64,000 nt of DNA. Source: Thermoplasmata archaeon. Lineage in GTDB: Archaea > Thermoplasmatota > Thermoplasmata > GCA-020350865. The notes below the pieces were generated by a model. It was not told the DNA's origin and made no database searches. It saw only the letters and a program-made list of their open reading frames with translations. The stretch lies in contig CP070751.1 in the NCBI GenBank assembly GCA_020348445.1, forward strand, positions 343,772-407,771. Direction: 5' to 3'. Shown here piece by piece: positions 21,959 to 51,842 of this stretch. Every line of letters begins with the position of its first letter. Position 1 is the first letter of the stretch. A program made the translations under genes and the position numbers.

Positions 21959-23530
21959 TTATTTTAGGGTTTTGGACATAAACGGGCCGGTTCTTTGGTA
22001 TCCGAACTTCCTGTAATATTCCCTTGCCCCGACACCGCTTGTGACAATTAGCCTCTCTGCTTCATCTTCCCCTACGATCTTCTCGCATTCTAAAAGTAAT
22101 CTATGCCCGTACCCCTTATGCTGCCACAGTTTTTCGTTTGTCTTGCCAATTGGTACCATCTCACCTGCCACCTTGAGTTCACGGATTATCATACAAGGTT
22201 GGGCCTTTACGTCCTTTCTTTGGGCCTTATCTGAGGATTTTCTCAGGCGGGCGTAGGCTATCAGGATATCCTTACAATCCTCGAAGCTCAGGAAGTATTC
22301 TTTACCCTTTGAGGCTTCGTATTCGATTCTTCTGAGGGTGACAGATTCCATATCTGGTTCTGTGCCTTTTAGTGAGGATATGCCAACCTCCCTGCACCTT
22401 ATACAATTGCACTTCTTTTCTCTCTCTTTTAGCTTCTCCTGGACTATCTGCCGCAGGTTGCTCTTGTCCACGCCATCAGCAATGAGTTTTACAGGGATGT
22501 CCCTTTGAATTCTCTGTATTCTCACCCATTTAGGTAAGAAATCCTTGATTTGGGCTATAAGTTCGGCATTTTCCTCTGTATTGTAGGGTTTATAGTCCCC
22601 ATTTTCCCACATCTTATGCAATTTGGTGCCTTCTACAACAAGACAGGGATAGATTTTCAGCATATCTGGCCTGAAATCCGGGTTCTCGAAGAGTGTTTTG
22701 AAGGCCGCAATATCCCTCTTAAAATCCGAGCCAGGGAGTCCCGGCATCATGTGGTAGCATACCTTTAATCCTGCATCTTTGGCTAATCTGGTGGCTTCTA
22801 TAGAATCCTTTACTGTGTGCCCTCGTTCTACTCGTTCTAATATATCATCGTATACTGTCTGAACTCCCAATTCCACTCTTGTGGCCCCCAGTCTAAGCAT
22901 CTCGTCTACATGCTCTGATTTACACCAATCTGGTCTTGTCTCTATAGTCAAACCTATACATCTTGAGGGTGCGAACTCGTTTAGGCTGTGTGCATCCTCG
23001 ATTGTGGCTGCCTCTGTTTCATTCATGGCATCGAAGCATCTTTTCACGAACCATTCCTGGTAGTTTTTATCTCTTGCAGTGAACGTCCCTCCCATGATGA
23101 TGAGGTCCACCTTGTCTGTTGGGTGGCCAATTGTGGACAGCTGCTCGACTCTGGATCTGGTTTGCTTGTACGGGTCGAAATCATTTGATCCCGCCCTCAT
23201 GGCTGCTGGTTCATGTCCTGTGTAGCTCTGGGCTGTCCCAAATTCTTTTCCTCCCGGGCAGTATATGCATTTTCCATGGGGGCAGTCTTCTGGGGATGTC
23301 ATGACTGCCACGACCGCAACCCCAGAGGTTGTACGCACTGGTTTGAGTCTAAGAAACGGCTCGATTTCTTCGTATATGTCTGGTGATGCGTTTTCGAGGA
23401 TATCCACATCGCTGGGCAGGTTGGATAGACCGTATTTCTTGCACAGTTTTACCTTGGCTCCGTGGATCTCGTTTTTGGTTCTGATTTCACCTGCGCGGAT
23501 CTGGTTGATTATGTCCTCGTAGAAGGTCAT
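21959..23530 (-). CDS. elp3: Elp3 tRNA uridine(34) acetyltransferase (radical SAM + GNAT)
   Basis: VRTTSGVAVVAVM, CPHGKCIYCPGG, QSYTGHEPA, IETRPDW, ELGVQT, LKIYPCLV, RIQRIQRDIP, QHKGYG, SGVGAREYY. Confidence 0.96.
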   Translation of the reverse strand: MTFYEDIINQIRAGEIRTKNEIHGAKVKLCKKYGLSNLPSDVDILENASPDIYEEIEPFLRLKPVRTTSGVAVVAVMTSPEDCPHGKCIYCPGGKEFGTAQSYTGHEPAAMRAGSNDFDPYKQTRSRVEQLSTIGHPTDKVDLIIMGGTFTARDKNYQEWFVKRCFDAMNETEAATIEDAHSLNEFAPSRCIGLTIETRPDWCKSEHVDEMLRLGATRVELGVQTVYDDILERVERGHTVKDSIEATRLAKDAGLKVCYHMMPGLPGSDFKRDIAAFKTLFENPDFRPDMLKIYPCLVVEGTKLHKMWENGDYKPYNTEENAELIAQIKDFLPKWVRIQRIQRDIPVKLIADGVDKSNLRQIVQEKLKEREKKCNCIRCREVGISSLKGTEPDMESVTLRRIEYEASKGKEYFLSFEDCKDILIAYARLRKSSDKAQRKDVKAQPCMIIRELKVAGEMVPIGKTNEKLWQHKGYGHRLLLECEKIVGEDEAERLIVTSGVGAREYYRKFGYQRTGPFMSKTLK

Positions 23531-23698
23531 TGTATTCCAGAAGGATAATGGGGGTATTTAAAGGGTGTTGTTTATTAAAAATAGGGACTGTATGAAAAGA
23601 GGGTAGGGAGTATAGATAACAAAGCCAAATATGCAAAATTTAATAAAGTACCAATATCATTAACATTCGGGTTAATAAATAGCCCACGAAAGGAGAGG

Positions 23699-24358
23699 GT
23701 GATGAAAATGGCATTTTGTCCTAATTGCGGAAGAGAAATGGGTTACATTGCACAACACGGCCAGTGGTATTGTTATTCATGTCGGCAGTACCGACAGGTA
23801 CCGCAACAGGCTGCTCCTATTGCACCTCAACAACAATATCAACCTCCGCAGCAAGCGCCCCCGGGAAAATCGAACACAGTATTAATTATGGGTGCTGTAA
23901 TTGCCGTGGTTGCTGTTGTGATTATCGCATCATTGGCCTTGATGCTTGGGGGAGATGGTGGTGGTGGAGGCTCGAATAACAAAGATAAAGACGATAAGGC
24001 AAGAACATTAGAGCTCACTATACATTATACTGGTTCTGGAACTGTTGATAGTGACTATAAGATTTTTATTGGAGTTCTAGATGAGGCTGATTTTAGAGGT
24101 GAATATCCTGAACATACAGAAAGTTTATCTTCAAGTAGCGGTACTGTGACAATATCTGGAATCACATTTTCACCTTGTTATGTATTTGTTTCATATGATG
24201 CAGATGGTAGTGGTGGCGATCCCGATTATGGGGATAGTTATGAGATTTATGAGGATGAAAGTATGTATGAAATACCTGCAGATCCTATTGATATAGAAGA
24301 AGGTGAAACAAAAAGCATCACTATTACATTTGATGACAGTTATACAATTGATTGGTGA
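23699..24358 (+). CDS. Single-pass membrane protein: N-terminal zinc ribbon, Gln/Pro linker, TM, acidic extracellular Ig-like domain
   Basis: FCPNCG...YIAQHGQWYCYSCRQY. TM VLIMGAVIAVVAVVIIASLALML. Confidence 0.8.
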   Translation: MMKMAFCPNCGREMGYIAQHGQWYCYSCRQYRQVPQQAAPIAPQQQYQPPQQAPPGKSNTVLIMGAVIAVVAVVIIASLALMLGGDGGGGGSNNKDKDDKARTLELTIHYTGSGTVDSDYKIFIGVLDEADFRGEYPEHTESLSSSSGTVTISGITFSPCYVFVSYDADGSGGDPDYGDSYEIYEDESMYEIPADPIDIEEGETKSITITFDDSYTIDW

Positions 24359-24445
24359 GTTGTTTTCGGCGGTATTAATATATGTGAATAACCCGATAAG
24401 CAATCTGGAGTATGCTTGACCTGGAAAAGCAAGAAGTGAGAAAAA

Positions 24446-24658
24446 ATGGATAATACACACAATAAAAAAACAGTAGATATATCAGTCTTGTGGCTATTTC
24501 TAAAGGGACCTTTTTGGATACTCCTTGGCTTCTGGTATGTGTTTACGAGGACACCTTTTGAGGATAGAATGAATGCACTGTGGCTTTATATTGTCGTTGT
24601 CTTCATTGTTTTTATTATCTGGATAAAACTGCGGCGCATCCGTTTTTTCAGGAAATAA
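24446..24658 (+). CDS. Small two-TM hypothetical membrane protein
   Basis: 70 aa with two hydrophobic stretches and a basic C-terminus (KLRRIRFFRK). Confidence 0.55.
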   Translation: MDNTHNKKTVDISVLWLFLKGPFWILLGFWYVFTRTPFEDRMNALWLYIVVVFIVFIIWIKLRRIRFFRK

Positions 24659-24680
24659 GCGACTGAGAGAAACCTATTTA

Positions 24681-24688
24681 TTTAAAAA
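24681..24688 (+). promoter_or_regulatory. Probable TATA box for the repeat-array/tRNA-Ala transcript
   Basis: TTTAAAAA lies ~25 nt upstream of the first GGGCCGG unit (24713). No suitably spaced TATA was seen directly before the tRNA itself; AATATAAA at 24913-24920 is only ~9 nt away. Confidence 0.5.
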
Positions 24689-24710
24689 GCCCATTGCCAT
24701 ACTTCACTAT

Positions 24711-24928
24711 ATGGGCCGGTAGATATTCGTGGGGGCTTCGTTCCCACTATATCTCCCGCTCATATCACTTGCTTCACTTGTGTGGGCCGGTAGATATTCG
24801 TGGTGGTTTCTCCCCCCACTTACTCTACAGAAATACCCATTCGCATTAACTTTGTGGGCCGGTAGACTCCGTGGCAAGCAAGTTGCCACTCACTCTCCCG
24901 ACCCTCAACTGCAATATAAAATCAATAC
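24711..24928 (+). repeat. Three degenerate ~72-nt tandem units, each starting with a copy of the tRNA-Ala 5' end and containing a 7-bp GTGG..CCAC hairpin
   Basis: GGGCCGGTAGA starts at 24713, 24784 and 24856, and the tRNA at 24929 (spacing 71/72/73). Confidence 0.88.
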
Positions 24929-25001
24929 GGGCCGGTAGATCAGTTGGAAGATCGCAGGCTTTGCAAGCCTGAGGCCACGGGTTCAAATCCCGTCCGGTCC
25001 A
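24929..25001 (+). tRNA. tRNA-Ala (anticodon TGC), 73 nt, CCA not encoded
   Basis: Cloverleaf GGGCCGG/CCGGTCC with G3:U70 and discriminator A. D-stem GATC/GATC. Anticodon arm CAGGC-TTTGCAA-GCCTG. T-arm ACGGG-TTCAAAT-CCCGT. Confidence 0.97.
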
Positions 25002-25197
25002 CTCTAATTTTTATATAATTGTATCTGTGGACCGGACTTTATGTTCGAGTTATAATTGAACATCAATTAGGTCTTAAGCTCGAACATCCCGTCCGGTCCA
25101 CTTTAATTTTTAAATAATTATATCCGTGGACCGGACTCGTGTTTGAGTTATAATTGAATTTAAATTGTTTCTTAAGCTCAAACACCCATCCGGTCCA
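24989..25197 (+). repeat. Two ~98-nt tandem units plus a partial third, each starting with the tRNA-Ala 3' end and containing two hairpins
   Basis: CCCGTCCGGTCCAC at 24989 and 25088, CCCATCCGGTCCA at 25185. Inverted copy GTGGACCGGAC at 25027 and 25126. Confidence 0.9.
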
Positions 25198-25279
25198 TTT
25201 GTTATTACCTTGACATGAAAATTCATTCGACATCAATATATACCCCGGTTGCATACAGGGGCAATGGGGGGACCTTACT

Positions 25280-26221
25280 TTGGATGAAATCAGATCTGCA
25301 ATGGAGAAATTTGGAGTACCTGGCAGAGACCTATACGACCTGCCCACTTCGGATAAAAGTTTTCCGGATGGAGCAAATTACAGAATGGAGATATCAGGAG
25401 TTGAAAGGCTCAGCACCCTAGAAGCTCTGGTGGACGAGATGGAGAAGCGCAACATGCCAATCCACAGGCTCATTTCCACGGTAATGGGCTGCACTCTGCT
25501 TACAGATGATGAGCTTGAGAACTTTGCAAAGCTGGCTGCCGAAAAGAAGGTGGAAGTTATAATTACACCGGGGCCTAGAAGCTCCTGGGATACGGGACGC
25601 CAGCTTTTTACACCAGAAGGAGCCATATCAGGCCTTCGGGTAAGAGGCTCGGATAATCTATCCTACCTGATAGCGGATATAAAGAGGGCAGCCGATTTCG
25701 GCTTCAGAGGCTTTTTAGTGACAGACGAAGGAGCCTTGTGGCTGCTTTCAAAGCTCAGGGAAGAAGGCGTGATTCCAAAGGACGTAGTGTTCAAGGTGTC
25801 AATATTTGCAGGCCACGCCAATGCGGCAGGAGGCAAGGTACTGGAAAGCCTGGGTGCCAACACATTCAACCCTCTGGGAGACCTGAGCCTACCCATGTTC
25901 GCATCTATAAGATCCGCCATCGACATACCAATTGACATCCATATATACCTGTCAGACTCATTTGGGGGATTTAACAGGTTCTGGGAGGCACCCGAACTTG
26001 CAAGGATTGCTTCGCCCTGCTACTTCAAAATCGAGCCAGGCACGGCCTTGGCAGCAGGTGGAGGAATTTACAAGCCCTGGACTGACGAGGGCTTTTTAGC
26101 CAAGTTCGCAAGGGAGAAGGTGAAGCACGCCGAGATCATAAAGGGCATAATAGACAAATACCAGCCGAACCTGAAGCTCTCTGCATTAGGACCAAGTGAC
26201 CTGGCCATTCCAAAACCTTGA
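25280..26221 (+). CDS. Conserved TIM-barrel-like protein of unknown function (often labelled U32 peptidase-like)
   Basis: Resembles the LPTSxKxFPDGxxYRxE family from memory. TTG start after GGGGGGA. First gene of the aldolase-Fae operon. Confidence 0.65.
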   Translation: MDEIRSAMEKFGVPGRDLYDLPTSDKSFPDGANYRMEISGVERLSTLEALVDEMEKRNMPIHRLISTVMGCTLLTDDELENFAKLAAEKKVEVIITPGPRSSWDTGRQLFTPEGAISGLRVRGSDNLSYLIADIKRAADFGFRGFLVTDEGALWLLSKLREEGVIPKDVVFKVSIFAGHANAAGGKVLESLGANTFNPLGDLSLPMFASIRSAIDIPIDIHIYLSDSFGGFNRFWEAPELARIASPCYFKIEPGTALAAGGGIYKPWTDEGFLAKFAREKVKHAEIIKGIIDKYQPNLKLSALGPSDLAIPKP

Positions 26222-26259
26222 TTTCTCCTTCTTTTCAATATTTGTTAGGAGGCTATATT

Positions 26260-27690
26260 ATGTCGGAGTTCAAACTCGAAGGAGTATTTCCAGCGTTAAT
26301 AACACCGTTTAAGAAGGACGAGAGCATAGACGAGGAGGCATTCCGCTCGCTAATTTCGTATGTGATGCCACATGTAAATGGAATAGTTCCCTGCGGGACA
26401 ACAGGGGAGTTCGTCTATCTTGATTTTGAGGAGAGAAAGAGACTGATAGACATAGCAGTAGAGGAGATTAAAGACGGCAGGTACGTTGTCGCCGGAACAG
26501 GGGCATGTTCCACTAAACACGCAATAGAGCTTACCAAGTATGCAAAGGATGCAGGTGCAGATGCCAGTCTTGTTGTGAGTCCCTATTACCTAAATCCTGC
26601 GGACAAAGGCCATTACGAGCACTTCTATCAGATAGCCAAGAACACGGATTTTCCAATTATAATGTACAACATACCCCAATGTACAGGCTCTTTCTTGCCG
26701 AGAAGGGTTATAGAGGACCTCGCAAATATAGACAACATCGTGGGTCTGAAGGACTCCTCAGGAAACTTGACCTTCACATTGGAGGTACTAGAGAAGGTGA
26801 GAGACAAGATCAACGTAGTGATAGGGCACGACGAGGTTGTTCTTCCTGCATTGGCTGCAGGTTGCAAGGGTATGATATTGGCCTCGGCGCAGGTGTTTCC
26901 AGATGTCTGGCAGGAATTATTTTCAGCTGTTAAAGAGGGTAATCTCGAGAGGGCGCAGGAGCTTCAGATGAAGGTGCAGAAGCTTGCACGGATATTCTGT
27001 AGGTACGGTGGTGCAGTCCCAGTGAAAGCTGCTTTACGCATGATGGGATTAAAGATGGGAAGAACAAGAAAACCCATAAGAGAAGGCGGAGTGATCATTC
27101 ACGAGGACAGGGAGGAGATCAGGGTTGAGCTTGAGAAATTAGGAAAAATAGAATCCGCACCTTTCGAGTTTAGTGTACCAGATATCCCCATTAAATCCAG
27201 ATTCGAGGATGTTGGTATTGCAAAGGAGGACATTCAAGGATCAGGTCTTCTCTTAGGAACCGCATCTTCTGGAGAGGGAAAAGAGCAGGTTCATGTTGAT
27301 CTGGTCATGGGAGAAAAAAGCAGTCCCCTTGGGAAAGCCTTTGCAGTTCAGCTCACGCATCCAAGACATGGTCACGAGGCACTGACAACCATCTTAGAAC
27401 CCAATCTAACTGTGAGGCCTTCTACACTTATTGTGCCGGGTATTGAACTTAAGAACCTAAGGCAGGCGAACATGATATATGGACCAACGCAAAGCGCGGT
27501 GGCGAAGGTCATCGTTGATAACATCGAGCAGGGTACAATTACAAATGAAATGGTCAAAAACTACCTCATGATAATAAAAATCCATGTTCCCCCAAATGCA
27601 CTGGATAGACAATTGCTATATGAAAACAATTACCAGGCTGTAGATTCGGCATTAAAAAAAGCATTATCTGGCTCTTCGGGGGGTGATTGA
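26260..27690 (+). CDS. DapA/NAL-family class I aldolase fused to a C-terminal Fae (formaldehyde-activating enzyme) domain, paralog 1
   Basis: GTTGE, MYNIPQCTG, GLKDSSG (Schiff-base Lys). Fae-like VHVDL...LEPNLTVRPSTLIVP...IYGPTQSAVAK...NNYQA. ATG 26260 follows AGGAGG. Confidence 0.88.
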   Translation: MSEFKLEGVFPALITPFKKDESIDEEAFRSLISYVMPHVNGIVPCGTTGEFVYLDFEERKRLIDIAVEEIKDGRYVVAGTGACSTKHAIELTKYAKDAGADASLVVSPYYLNPADKGHYEHFYQIAKNTDFPIIMYNIPQCTGSFLPRRVIEDLANIDNIVGLKDSSGNLTFTLEVLEKVRDKINVVIGHDEVVLPALAAGCKGMILASAQVFPDVWQELFSAVKEGNLERAQELQMKVQKLARIFCRYGGAVPVKAALRMMGLKMGRTRKPIREGGVIIHEDREEIRVELEKLGKIESAPFEFSVPDIPIKSRFEDVGIAKEDIQGSGLLLGTASSGEGKEQVHVDLVMGEKSSPLGKAFAVQLTHPRHGHEALTTILEPNLTVRPSTLIVPGIELKNLRQANMIYGPTQSAVAKVIVDNIEQGTITNEMVKNYLMIIKIHVPPNALDRQLLYENNYQAVDSALKKALSGSSGGD

Positions 27691-27692
27691 TA

Positions 27693-29168
27693 ATGCCCAA
27701 AACAGAATGGTTTAGGGGAGTGTTTCCTGCAATGGTCACACCCTACAACAGGGACGAGGAAATAAATGATGAGGCCTTCAGAAGCCTGATTGCTCACCTC
27801 CTACCCAATGTGAACGGCATAGTCCCCTGCGGCACAACTGGGGAGTTCATGTACCTTTCTGAAAAGGAAAAGATGCACATTATCGATTTGGCTGTAGATG
27901 AAGTAAAAGGGAAGGTGCCAGTTATCGCGGGAACAGGCTGCCCAAGCACGAAACATACCAAAGAGCTCACACAGTACGCAAAGGATGCAGGTGCTAAAGC
28001 TGCGTTGGTTGTCTCACCCTTTTATCTCAAGCCCTCCTTCAAGGAGCTTTATGAGCACTACGACACCCTAAACTCCTTGGACTTCCCCATCATCCTCTAC
28101 AATATTCCTCAGTGTACTGGGATTCATAAAAAATGGTGGACTGCAGAAGGCCTTGCTCAGTTGGAGAATGTGATTGGAATAAAGGACTCCTCAGGCGATC
28201 TGGCCTTCATGATGGCCCTTTTCGAGAAGATCAAAGGAAAAATCTCGATATTCTGCGGCCACGACGAAATTGCAATGCCTGCATTGGCAGCGGGTGCCGA
28301 CGGTTTGATTCTGGCAAGCGCCAATCTGATTCCAGATATCTGGCAGAAAATATTCAAGGCTGTGAATGAACGCGATTTGGCAGAGGCTCAAAAGCTCCAG
28401 GCCGAAATCCAAAAGCTGGTTAGAATTGTGGTGAGAAACGGTGCAACCCAGGCTGTAAAAGAGGGTCTTAATATGATGGGCCTTTCTATGGGCAACTCAA
28501 GACGTCCTATCATGCCTGGAGGACCTTTCAGAAGAGAGGATAGAGAGGAGCTGAGAATACAGCTTGAGAACCTTGGTAAGATTCAGAAGAAGACAGTGGA
28601 GTTCGAGGTCAGTAAGGGGAATGTGATCACCTCAGATTACCCTGCAGTATCGTACACACCATCTCGCATATCTGATTTCACAATGAAGGTTGGAGAGGGC
28701 TTCGCAGGACCACCTGTCTATGAATTGGCTCATATAGACCTGCTTATCGGAGTAAAAGATGGACCCGTTGGAGCTGCTTTAGAGGAGGCATTGGAAAGGG
28801 AGAAGAAAGAAGGGACAGATACTCTGAGGATCATAAACGACAAACCAAAAACACTTTTGGTTCCCACAGTGACGGTTCGAACAAAAAAGCAGGCTGCGCA
28901 CATCTACGAACATGCAACAAAAGGAGTCAATCTAGCAATAGAGAAGAGTATAAAGGACGGGGTGCTGCCCGAGGCTATCCTGGACGATATCTGCATGATC
29001 GCAAATGTATTTGTTCATCCAGCAGCTGCAAACAGACACAGAATCATGTTCAACAACTACAAGGCCATGCTTCATGCAACAAAAAAGGCCTTGGAAGAAA
29101 GACCCACTATAGATGAGCTACTAAATGAGAAGGAGTGCGCAAGGCATCCCTTCAAATACACGCCTTAG
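27693..29168 (+). CDS. DapA/NAL-family aldolase-Fae fusion, paralog 2
   Basis: GTTGE, LYNIPQCTG, GIKDSSG. Fae-like VGEGF...AHIDLLIG..GPVG...VFVHPAA...NNYKA...RPTIDELL...ARHPF. ATG 27693 follows GGGGTGA. Confidence 0.88.
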   Translation: MPKTEWFRGVFPAMVTPYNRDEEINDEAFRSLIAHLLPNVNGIVPCGTTGEFMYLSEKEKMHIIDLAVDEVKGKVPVIAGTGCPSTKHTKELTQYAKDAGAKAALVVSPFYLKPSFKELYEHYDTLNSLDFPIILYNIPQCTGIHKKWWTAEGLAQLENVIGIKDSSGDLAFMMALFEKIKGKISIFCGHDEIAMPALAAGADGLILASANLIPDIWQKIFKAVNERDLAEAQKLQAEIQKLVRIVVRNGATQAVKEGLNMMGLSMGNSRRPIMPGGPFRREDREELRIQLENLGKIQKKTVEFEVSKGNVITSDYPAVSYTPSRISDFTMKVGEGFAGPPVYELAHIDLLIGVKDGPVGAALEEALEREKKEGTDTLRIINDKPKTLLVPTVTVRTKKQAAHIYEHATKGVNLAIEKSIKDGVLPEAILDDICMIANVFVHPAAANRHRIMFNNYKAMLHATKKALEERPTIDELLNEKECARHPFKYTP

Positions 29169-51482: not shown

Positions 51483-51842
51483 TACTTTGCATAATTATTT
51501 TCTATTTAATAAACTCTTGCTTTTGTTAATGGTAATATTGTTCCCTCCTCTCTTGCCCTTCCTTTTTTACCCCCACCTCCCTTATCCCCTCCTCCCTTAC
51601 CCCCTCCATCGTGGCCTCTTCCATTTTCTAAATGGTATATTCATAGTCCACTTTGCCCTTAGGTTATGCGATAAAGTGTCGATATCTTAAGCCTAAGGGC
51701 TCCCACCCAAAAATATGTCAGATTAAGATGTTTACTAAAAGAATATTCATTCATTATCGCCAAATTTATATTTTATAACCGCATAACCAGAAATTAGCAT
51801 CAGAAGGAAAGGAATTTACAAAACAACAAAAGGAGATTCTCG

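Follow-up and report, generated by a model that had tools for sequence, protein, structure and literature searches.

REP, BIME and REPIN sequences are extragenic palindromes that are mobilised by RAYT transposases of the Y1 HUH type. Integrases classically leave partial copies of a tRNA next to its gene, and in CRISPR arrays and casposon insertions integrases of the Cas1 family duplicate a target of 14–40 bp. Replication template switching between the arms of an inverted repeat gives a precedent for making and maintaining hairpins (PMC8794818, PMC8604942). Here we describe an array beside a tRNA-Ala(TGC) gene of a Thermoplasmata archaeon, found in a window of 64,000 nt (the whole stretch of DNA that was analysed), which shares features with each of these systems and differs from all of them.

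Fold-back units upstream of tRNA-Ala(TGC)

The tRNA-Ala(TGC) gene (24929–25002, + strand) is intact and is called by both ARAGORN and Rfam (RF00005, 71.4 bits). The 11-mer GGGCCGGTAGA begins at its first nucleotide and also at 24713, 24784 and 24856, that is, with spacings of 71, 72 and 73 nt, so that the three units opening with the tRNA-Ala 5′ end lie where a sequence-only reading of this DNA had placed them. Considering the whole 5.16-Mb single-contig genome, the 11-mer occurs 7 times, always at one of two tRNA-Ala loci, while the reversed sequence used as control returned 0 and 1 occurrences.

These units are 71–73 nt long and non-coding. In each of them the copy of tRNA nt 1–11/12 has an inverted counterpart some 40 nt further downstream, with which it pairs around a 7-bp inner hairpin; similarity to the tRNA ends after nt 11–12. 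The three inner hairpins (GTGGGGG/TTCCCAC, GTGGTGG/CCCCCAC with one mismatch, and GTGGCAA/TTGCCAC) are as originally described. The segment once read as a semi-conserved CT.A.TCT.C.G does exist, but it is really the 3′ arm of a longer hairpin, namely the inverted copy of the tRNA 5′ end.

Unit 1 (24713–24783, + strand; −26.7 kcal/mol, z −4.1) comprises a fold-back hairpin at 24713–24761, made of the copy of tRNA nt 1–12, the inner hairpin and the inverted copy, followed by a tail at 24762–24783. Unit 2 (24784–24855, + strand; −14.4 kcal/mol, z −0.5) is a tandem duplicate of unit 1 with a decayed 3′ arm: its first 28 nt are 93% identical to those of unit 1 and most of the 3′ arm has been lost. 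Unit 3 (24856–24928, + strand; −22.7 kcal/mol, z −3.9), with its fold-back hairpin at 24856–24904 and a type-1 tail at 24905–24928, directly abuts tRNA-Ala(TGC). The spacing near tRNA length, which had been pointed out, is a coincidence, since like units at other tRNAs have periods of 77–95 nt.

Neither ARAGORN nor Rfam detected a known RNA family within 24713–24928, and a permissive Rfam scan of 23500–26500 returned the tRNA and chance matches only. An archaeal BHB intron carries two 3-nt bulges on opposite strands with a 4-bp helix between them; judged by eye, the consensus fold of the units is interrupted by a single internal loop and by 1×1 mismatches at positions 4 and 8, and the 3-4-3 motif is absent. 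A C/D box guide would show a K-turn or boxes C/D, and an H/ACA guide would have ACA behind a pocket hairpin; the tails of units 1 and 3 lack ACA, a GA/AG K-turn motif is likewise missing, and Rfam gave no guide-sRNA match for the units at E up to 10 beyond chance matches.

The tails themselves had been taken for freely variable sequences of about 25 nt that might act as guides. They are about 24 nt long and belong to two conserved sequence types, common to units, tRNAs and genomes. Searched as targeting sequences, they matched nothing significantly in the rest of the genome, and none of their 20-mers recurs exactly in viral contigs, exact matching being a search that diverged targets would escape. 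A Cas1 search (PF01867), applied as a probe for the Cas1/Cas2 adaptation genes, was negative in three genus genomes, the source genome G000 and G001 (both closed) and G003, and only one genome of the second family carrying the units (see below) returned a hit. A 9-mer common to type-1 tails and downstream loops seemed enriched (117 vs 27 genome-wide) and was dropped, as most of its copies lie in ordinary coding sequence without shared context.

The neighbourhood is ordinary chromosome, with hypothetical proteins besides the genes named here. An archaeal homologue of Elp3 (radical SAM plus GNAT acetyltransferase), a tRNA wobble-uridine modification enzyme, is encoded on the − strand at 21959–23530, about 1.2 kb upstream of the tRNA-Ala locus, and two tandem paralogues at 26218–27690 and 27687–29168 (+ strand) each fuse a DHDPS-family domain to a formaldehyde-activating enzyme (Fae) domain.

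Downstream units and promoter

The same tRNA is also flanked on its 3′ side by two units (25003–25200). Downstream unit 1 (25003–25101, + strand; −39.3 kcal/mol, z −8.8) opens with a 24-nt AT-rich spacer, in which a TATA-like box and a T5 run are found. Then come the tRNA 3′ end in inverted copy (25027–25037), a hairpin whose loop is conserved, and the 3′ end once more in direct copy (25088–25101). Downstream unit 2 (25102–25200, + strand; −33.1 kcal/mol, z −8.9) has the same layout, with the inverted copy at 25126–25136 and a slightly decayed direct copy at 25185–25198. The inverted copy in these units corresponds to the last 11 nt of the tRNA.

A promoter block (24667–24698, + strand) ends about 15 nt before upstream unit 1 and consists of a BRE-like stretch, a TATA-like box at 24675–24688 and a conserved downstream motif. 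The TATA box proposed upstream of unit 1 is thus real and conserved in relatives: in five genus genomes the block keeps a fixed distance from the distal unit, whatever the number of units (3, 2, 2, 1 and 1). Genome-wide, the AT-rich promoter-like zone lies upstream of arrays and not immediately upstream of the array-bearing tRNAs. This evidence comes from AT profiles and the five-genome alignment, a strict TATA pattern having given too few sites. There is no T5 run within 24713–24928 and there is one immediately 3′ of the tRNA. Transcription through the array is likely and, given the conserved promoter upstream of the distal unit, the array most likely forms a pre-tRNA leader of about 225 nt.

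Covariation and strand neutrality of the stems

An alignment of 23 distinct Ala units from 7 genomes confirms the covarying hairpin, so that the claim stands well past the three copies from which it was made. Pairing holds in 93.8% of the cells of the inner stem, with compensatory (both-sided) changes at 6 of its 7 pairs. The full structure is 80.5% paired, against 38–46% when the partner columns are slid; the covariation score was reached by none of 500 shuffles, and RNAalifold unaided gives an identical fold. Column identity across the units averages 58% and only the first 11 nt are invariant.

Pairing in the outer stem is uneven. Its 5′ arm is invariant and partners are kept in 20–23 of the 23 units, with the exception of two sites. 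Opposite C4 the base is near-random (C in 8 units, T in 7, A in 4 and G in 4), and opposite U8 there is a C in 12 units and an A in 10. The alanine identity pair G3-U70 is replaced by G-C in 21 of the 23 unit hairpins, therefore the real acceptor stem is not copied.

Counts of G-U against A-C oppositions were used as a sign of RNA-level selection, considering that upkeep of a sense-strand RNA should give a large G-U surplus. Alignment-based counts were 12 G-U vs 9 A-C in the upstream-unit stems, while the downstream units, counted over their inner stems, gave 3 vs 13; a cruder count based on MFE structures gave 51 vs 35. Stem arms are about 90% Watson-Crick. Since G-U is not in excess in the alignment-based counts, the stems behave as strand-neutral DNA palindromes.

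Strand-neutral pairing, one-step compensatory changes and occasional flipped loops are the expected output of template switching. The marks of a template-switch hairpin are all found in these units: an arm exactly reverse-complementary to the sequence beside it, double changes that bypass a wobble intermediate, and loop inversion. Template switching is a mutational process and not a family, and the shared modules of the units are unaccounted for by it. Nor is it the whole story for the outer stem, because the site opposite C4 is unconstrained while its neighbours are kept, which indicates a position-specific constraint on the neighbouring positions.

Units at other tRNA genes of the genome

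The feature is peculiar neither to tRNA-Ala nor to 5′ ends, as it had first appeared to be, and both flanks of most stand-alone tRNA genes carry such copies. From about 45 stand-alone tRNA genes, a script applied to all ARAGORN tRNAs found a copy of the gene's own 5′ end upstream and/or of its own 3′ end downstream in about 35; many tRNAs are without upstream units. The inverted 3′-end copy begins 24–29 nt (mostly 25 nt) past the gene in at least 13 stand-alone tRNA genes. The outer stem differs at each tRNA and equals that tRNA's own end. Two upstream units also precede the second tRNA-Ala gene, a tRNA-Ala(GGC) with an intron; in one of the two the outer stem is a perfect 10 bp.

About 37 copies of the downstream hairpin, recognised by its conserved loop, adjoin tRNA genes: 33 in the tRNA orientation and 4 with a flipped loop. 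Downstream units that appeared to be orphans adjoin intron-containing tRNAs missed by ARAGORN and Rfam; an Rfam search of eight regions with such "orphan" units returned nothing. Downstream hairpins are sometimes chained through a short conserved linker, CGCAAAA[T/A]GGCT, with no tRNA-end copies between them, an arrangement that is BIME-like. Such chains are found on the source contig (G000:C1) near tRNA-His (797411–797472), tRNA-Leu (2560531–2560593 and 3218691) and tRNA-Trp (4783849–4784032).

Two tRNAs missed by ARAGORN and Rfam (G000:C1:~668250–668420, minus strand, and G000:C1:~2879640–2879860) have T-loop introns that hold the small hairpin of the upstream units (CGTGG...CCAC) together with the linker motif. 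No hairpin or linker module was found in canonical anticodon-loop introns. This sharing hints at a link between the tRNA-flanking repeats and the gain of non-canonical introns.

A related gene-less dispersed repeat of about 125 nt is present in about 14 genome copies. It shares the hairpin of the downstream units (loop GTTAT...TCTTAAG) and has a fixed left arm of its own. Most copies are not beside tRNAs, 3 of the 14 lying within 260 nt upstream of tRNA genes, and the repeat has no attached gene and offers no clue to an enzyme. One copy lies within the window (51586–51715).

Unlike the dispersed tRNAs, some 25 tRNA genes packed into 3 kb outside the window (G000:C1:4640570–4643566) have no flanking end-copy hairpins. 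This compact cluster may represent a second set of tRNAs, or an array belonging to a mobile element or virus.

Distribution among relatives

An array at tRNA-Ala, which had been suggested as something to look for in related genomes, is present at the orthologous tRNA-Ala(TGC) loci of four further genomes of the genus, which gives 3 upstream units in the source genome and 2, 2, 1 and 1 in the others. A scan of 401 genomes of the class for two 5′-end copies 55–85 nt apart returned 8 matches, with 0 in the controls: all 5 genomes of the genus, 2 out of 3 of a second family (G006 and G020) and one that looks unrelated. That match aside, the two-copy pattern was not found in the approximately 390 other genomes of the class.

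Extending the scan to about 185,000 species genomes, the archaeal matches are Thermoplasmata MAGs, including a closed chromosome labelled Methanomassiliicoccales by its submitters, but for one, labelled Methanobacteriota, which is the unrelated-looking match of the class scan. About 30 matches were bacterial. Two of them were read and neither represents tandem tRNA genes: one is a GC-rich coding coincidence and the other a CRISPR array of a Thermoleophilaceae MAG (L114:1960–2408), whose repeat of about 36 nt contains the 11-mer by coincidence. In a genome from another family of the class (G025), the tRNA-Ala locus shows a partial tRNA copy and a duplicated promoter segment upstream of the intact gene; the copy consists of the 5′ part and the anticodon arm with an insert, and is a duplication of a different kind from the hairpin units.

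One relative is without a downstream unit that another one has, their flanks being otherwise colinear. The ~98 nt by which they differ are made up of spacer, inverted copy and hairpin, followed by a repeat of the last ~13 nt of the tRNA with ~12 nt of trailer. It could reflect insertion with a long duplication or, equally, deletion between direct repeats.

The units are thus a lineage-restricted family, confined to few Thermoplasmata and apparently undescribed: the literature searched for a hairpin architecture that copies tRNA ends returned no published description of it.

Origin and possible role of the units

Our preferred reading, to which we assign a probability of roughly 0.55, is that the units are tolerated, lineage-restricted fold-back DNA repeats copying tRNA gene ends, which would be co-transcribed as a discarded leader, multiplied by local duplication and kept palindromic largely by template switching. 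An upstream unit would then be a spare copy of the first 11–12 nt of the tRNA, a small generic hairpin, the inverted copy and a linker of about 24 nt; as each unit brings its own copy of the tRNA end, the working gene is left intact. RNA polymerase would start about 10 nt before unit 1 and read all three units, producing a structured leader of about 225 nt that RNase P would discard by cutting at the true +1. Unequal recombination or slippage between the 5′-end copies may lengthen and shorten the arrays, units 1 and 2 probably being such a duplicate. Complementarity of the arms would be upheld chiefly in the DNA, through replication template switching with its one-step compensatory changes and loop flips. 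Purifying selection may contribute, so that spare copy and antisense would remain paired together and leave the folding of the tRNA acceptor stem undisturbed. The units would have no guide or targeting role.

Some observations sit uneasily with tolerated repeats. Persistence at the orthologous locus in 5 of 5 genus genomes and in a second family could reflect function instead, as could the conserved linkers and hairpin loops and the co-orientation with the tRNA. Plain template switching should also correct the site opposite C4, so position-specific selection is at work, and the constant 24–25-nt linker and the conserved generic hairpin modules are unexplained by template switching alone.

A first alternative is that of functional pre-tRNA elements: hairpins of the leader and trailer would mimic the acceptor end of the tRNA and work either in cis or, once released, as small RNAs. 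Possible tasks are the recruitment or pacing of RNase P and tRNase Z, protection of the ends of the precursor, and action as tRNA-specific decoys or antisense RNAs. A promoter positioned to transcribe the array would suit such a role, as would copies that begin exactly at the tRNA +1, a structure conserved with covariation across two families, conserved unpaired sites 4 and 8 between kept pairs, and modules co-oriented with the tRNA in 33 of 37 cases. Against it, neither unit type has a sense-strand surplus of G-U over A-C, unlike long-lived structured RNAs; the copy number varies from 1 to 3 among close relatives and unit 2 is decayed; upstream units are missing from many tRNAs and from the whole 25-tRNA cluster; and the replacement of G3-U70 in 21 of 23 units means that the hairpin does not reproduce the acceptor stem. 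Altogether we regard a functional element as unlikely.

Somewhat more doubtful still is insertion as miniature mobile elements, for which a dedicated enzyme would open tRNA gene ends with a long staggered cut. The repetition of the gene end would then be a target-site duplication, and the target would serve the enzyme as template for an arm of the element. Insertion is favoured by generic modules (hairpins and linkers) that units at different tRNAs have in common, together with the related ~125-nt repeat dispersed in about 14 copies away from tRNAs and the hairpin-plus-linker motif inside the T-loop introns of two tRNAs. The filled/empty difference is clean and bounded by direct repeats of about 25 nt, but deletion between those repeats would explain it equally. 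A candidate enzyme should be common to all carriers, and none of the classes searched, Y1 transposase, Cas1 or reverse transcriptase, is: the Y1 transposase (PF01797) is present in three genus genomes and was not found in the second-family carriers G006 (93% complete) and G020 (72% complete), and no reverse transcriptase was found in either closed genus genome. IS200/IS605-type ends in the source genome have hairpins unrelated to the units. Besides, we know of no transposition chemistry that puts an inverted target copy in the middle of an element.

We may nevertheless speculate that an active mechanism inserts a hairpin module at tRNA gene ends with arms templated on the target's terminal nucleotides, which would constitute a new, "target-templated" class of mobile DNA, possibly tied to the non-canonical tRNA introns of this lineage and with hairpins perhaps co-opted for pre-tRNA handling. 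We offer this broader idea tentatively, being more inclined to doubt than to accept it.

Scars of integrative elements (viruses or plasmids) with a tRNA-Ala attachment site, or decayed tandem tRNA duplicates, would agree with partial tRNA copies and with a unit spacing near tRNA length, yet they are very improbable. Attachment would leave repeats of tRNA parts flanking an element, or its remnants, with an integrase; the units at tRNA-Ala(TGC) are 71–73 nt without an ORF, and no integrase is found among the neighbouring genes (Elp3, hypothetical proteins and the DHDPS-Fae fusions). The match to the tRNA is limited to nt 1–12, and the 3′ arm, complementary to nt 1–12 with nt 8–12 included, is not tRNA-like. 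Every unit has an inverted copy, which att scars do not. A tRNA pseudogene or tandem duplicate should retain a residual cloverleaf or similarity along the tRNA, and 24713–24928 shows neither; ARAGORN and Rfam see no tRNA remnant.

A guide- or CRISPR-like array whose variable tails target other nucleic acids is hardly credible, for although a conserved structured head, a tail of about 24 nt and a single promoter are in place, the tails are of two conserved types instead of unique spacers and match neither genome nor viral contigs, Cas1 is missing, and the layout recurs at each tRNA gene, built from a different tRNA's end.

In this small archaeal group most stand-alone tRNA genes are wrapped in hairpins made from their own ends. 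If confirmed by experiment, this would be either an unrecognised route by which tiny DNA elements colonise essential genes without breaking them or a layer of pre-tRNA architecture so far overlooked. In practice, tRNA annotation is confounded by the long structured leaders and trailers to which the units give rise. The family is also a natural test of how far template switching alone makes and preserves hairpins, and the modules common to T-loop introns bear on how archaeal tRNA introns are gained.

Comparison with known systems

Similarly to REP, BIME and REPIN sequences, the units are short gene-less hairpin repeats in intergenic positions, commonly arranged in tandem or in alternation; co-transcription with neighbouring genes is frequent in such repeats and likely for the units. 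REPs, however, have one family-wide sequence that is scattered over the genome, whereas here the outer stem comes from the end of the adjacent tRNA and the units sit exactly at tRNA boundaries; no single palindrome sequence is dispersed, GGGCCGGTAGA being confined to the two tRNA-Ala loci. As to the enzyme of the REP-RAYT partnership, a Y1 transposase is present in three genus genomes and was not found in the two second-family carriers, which are 93% and 72% complete; the IS200-type end hairpins of the source genome are unrelated.

The attL/attR repeats that integrative elements leave in tRNA genes of archaea and bacteria are alike in that an intact tRNA gene is accompanied by direct repeats of its end and remains whole after insertion. 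The insert here is a gene-less 60–100 nt, both 5′ and 3′ ends are used, and the repeats are 11–25 nt long with an inverted copy in each unit.

With CRISPR and casposon insertions the units share a serial array, a short sequence duplicated per insertion and a promoter or leader upstream. They differ in the absence of Cas1 from the genus genomes searched, in "spacers" that are conserved structured modules and not captured unique DNA, and in the degeneracy of the repeats, which have a mean column identity of 58% where a CRISPR array would have near-identical repeats with unique spacers, the latter matching mobile elements.

Template-switch hairpins are sporadic events that do not account for the shared generic hairpin or the fixed 24–25-nt linker of the units, nor for their preference for tRNA ends and the unconstrained site opposite C4. 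The likeness to these hairpins (PMC8794818, PMC8604942) extends from the reverse-complement copy of neighbouring sequence and near-perfect Watson-Crick arms to compensatory double changes free of wobble and an occasional inversion of the loop.
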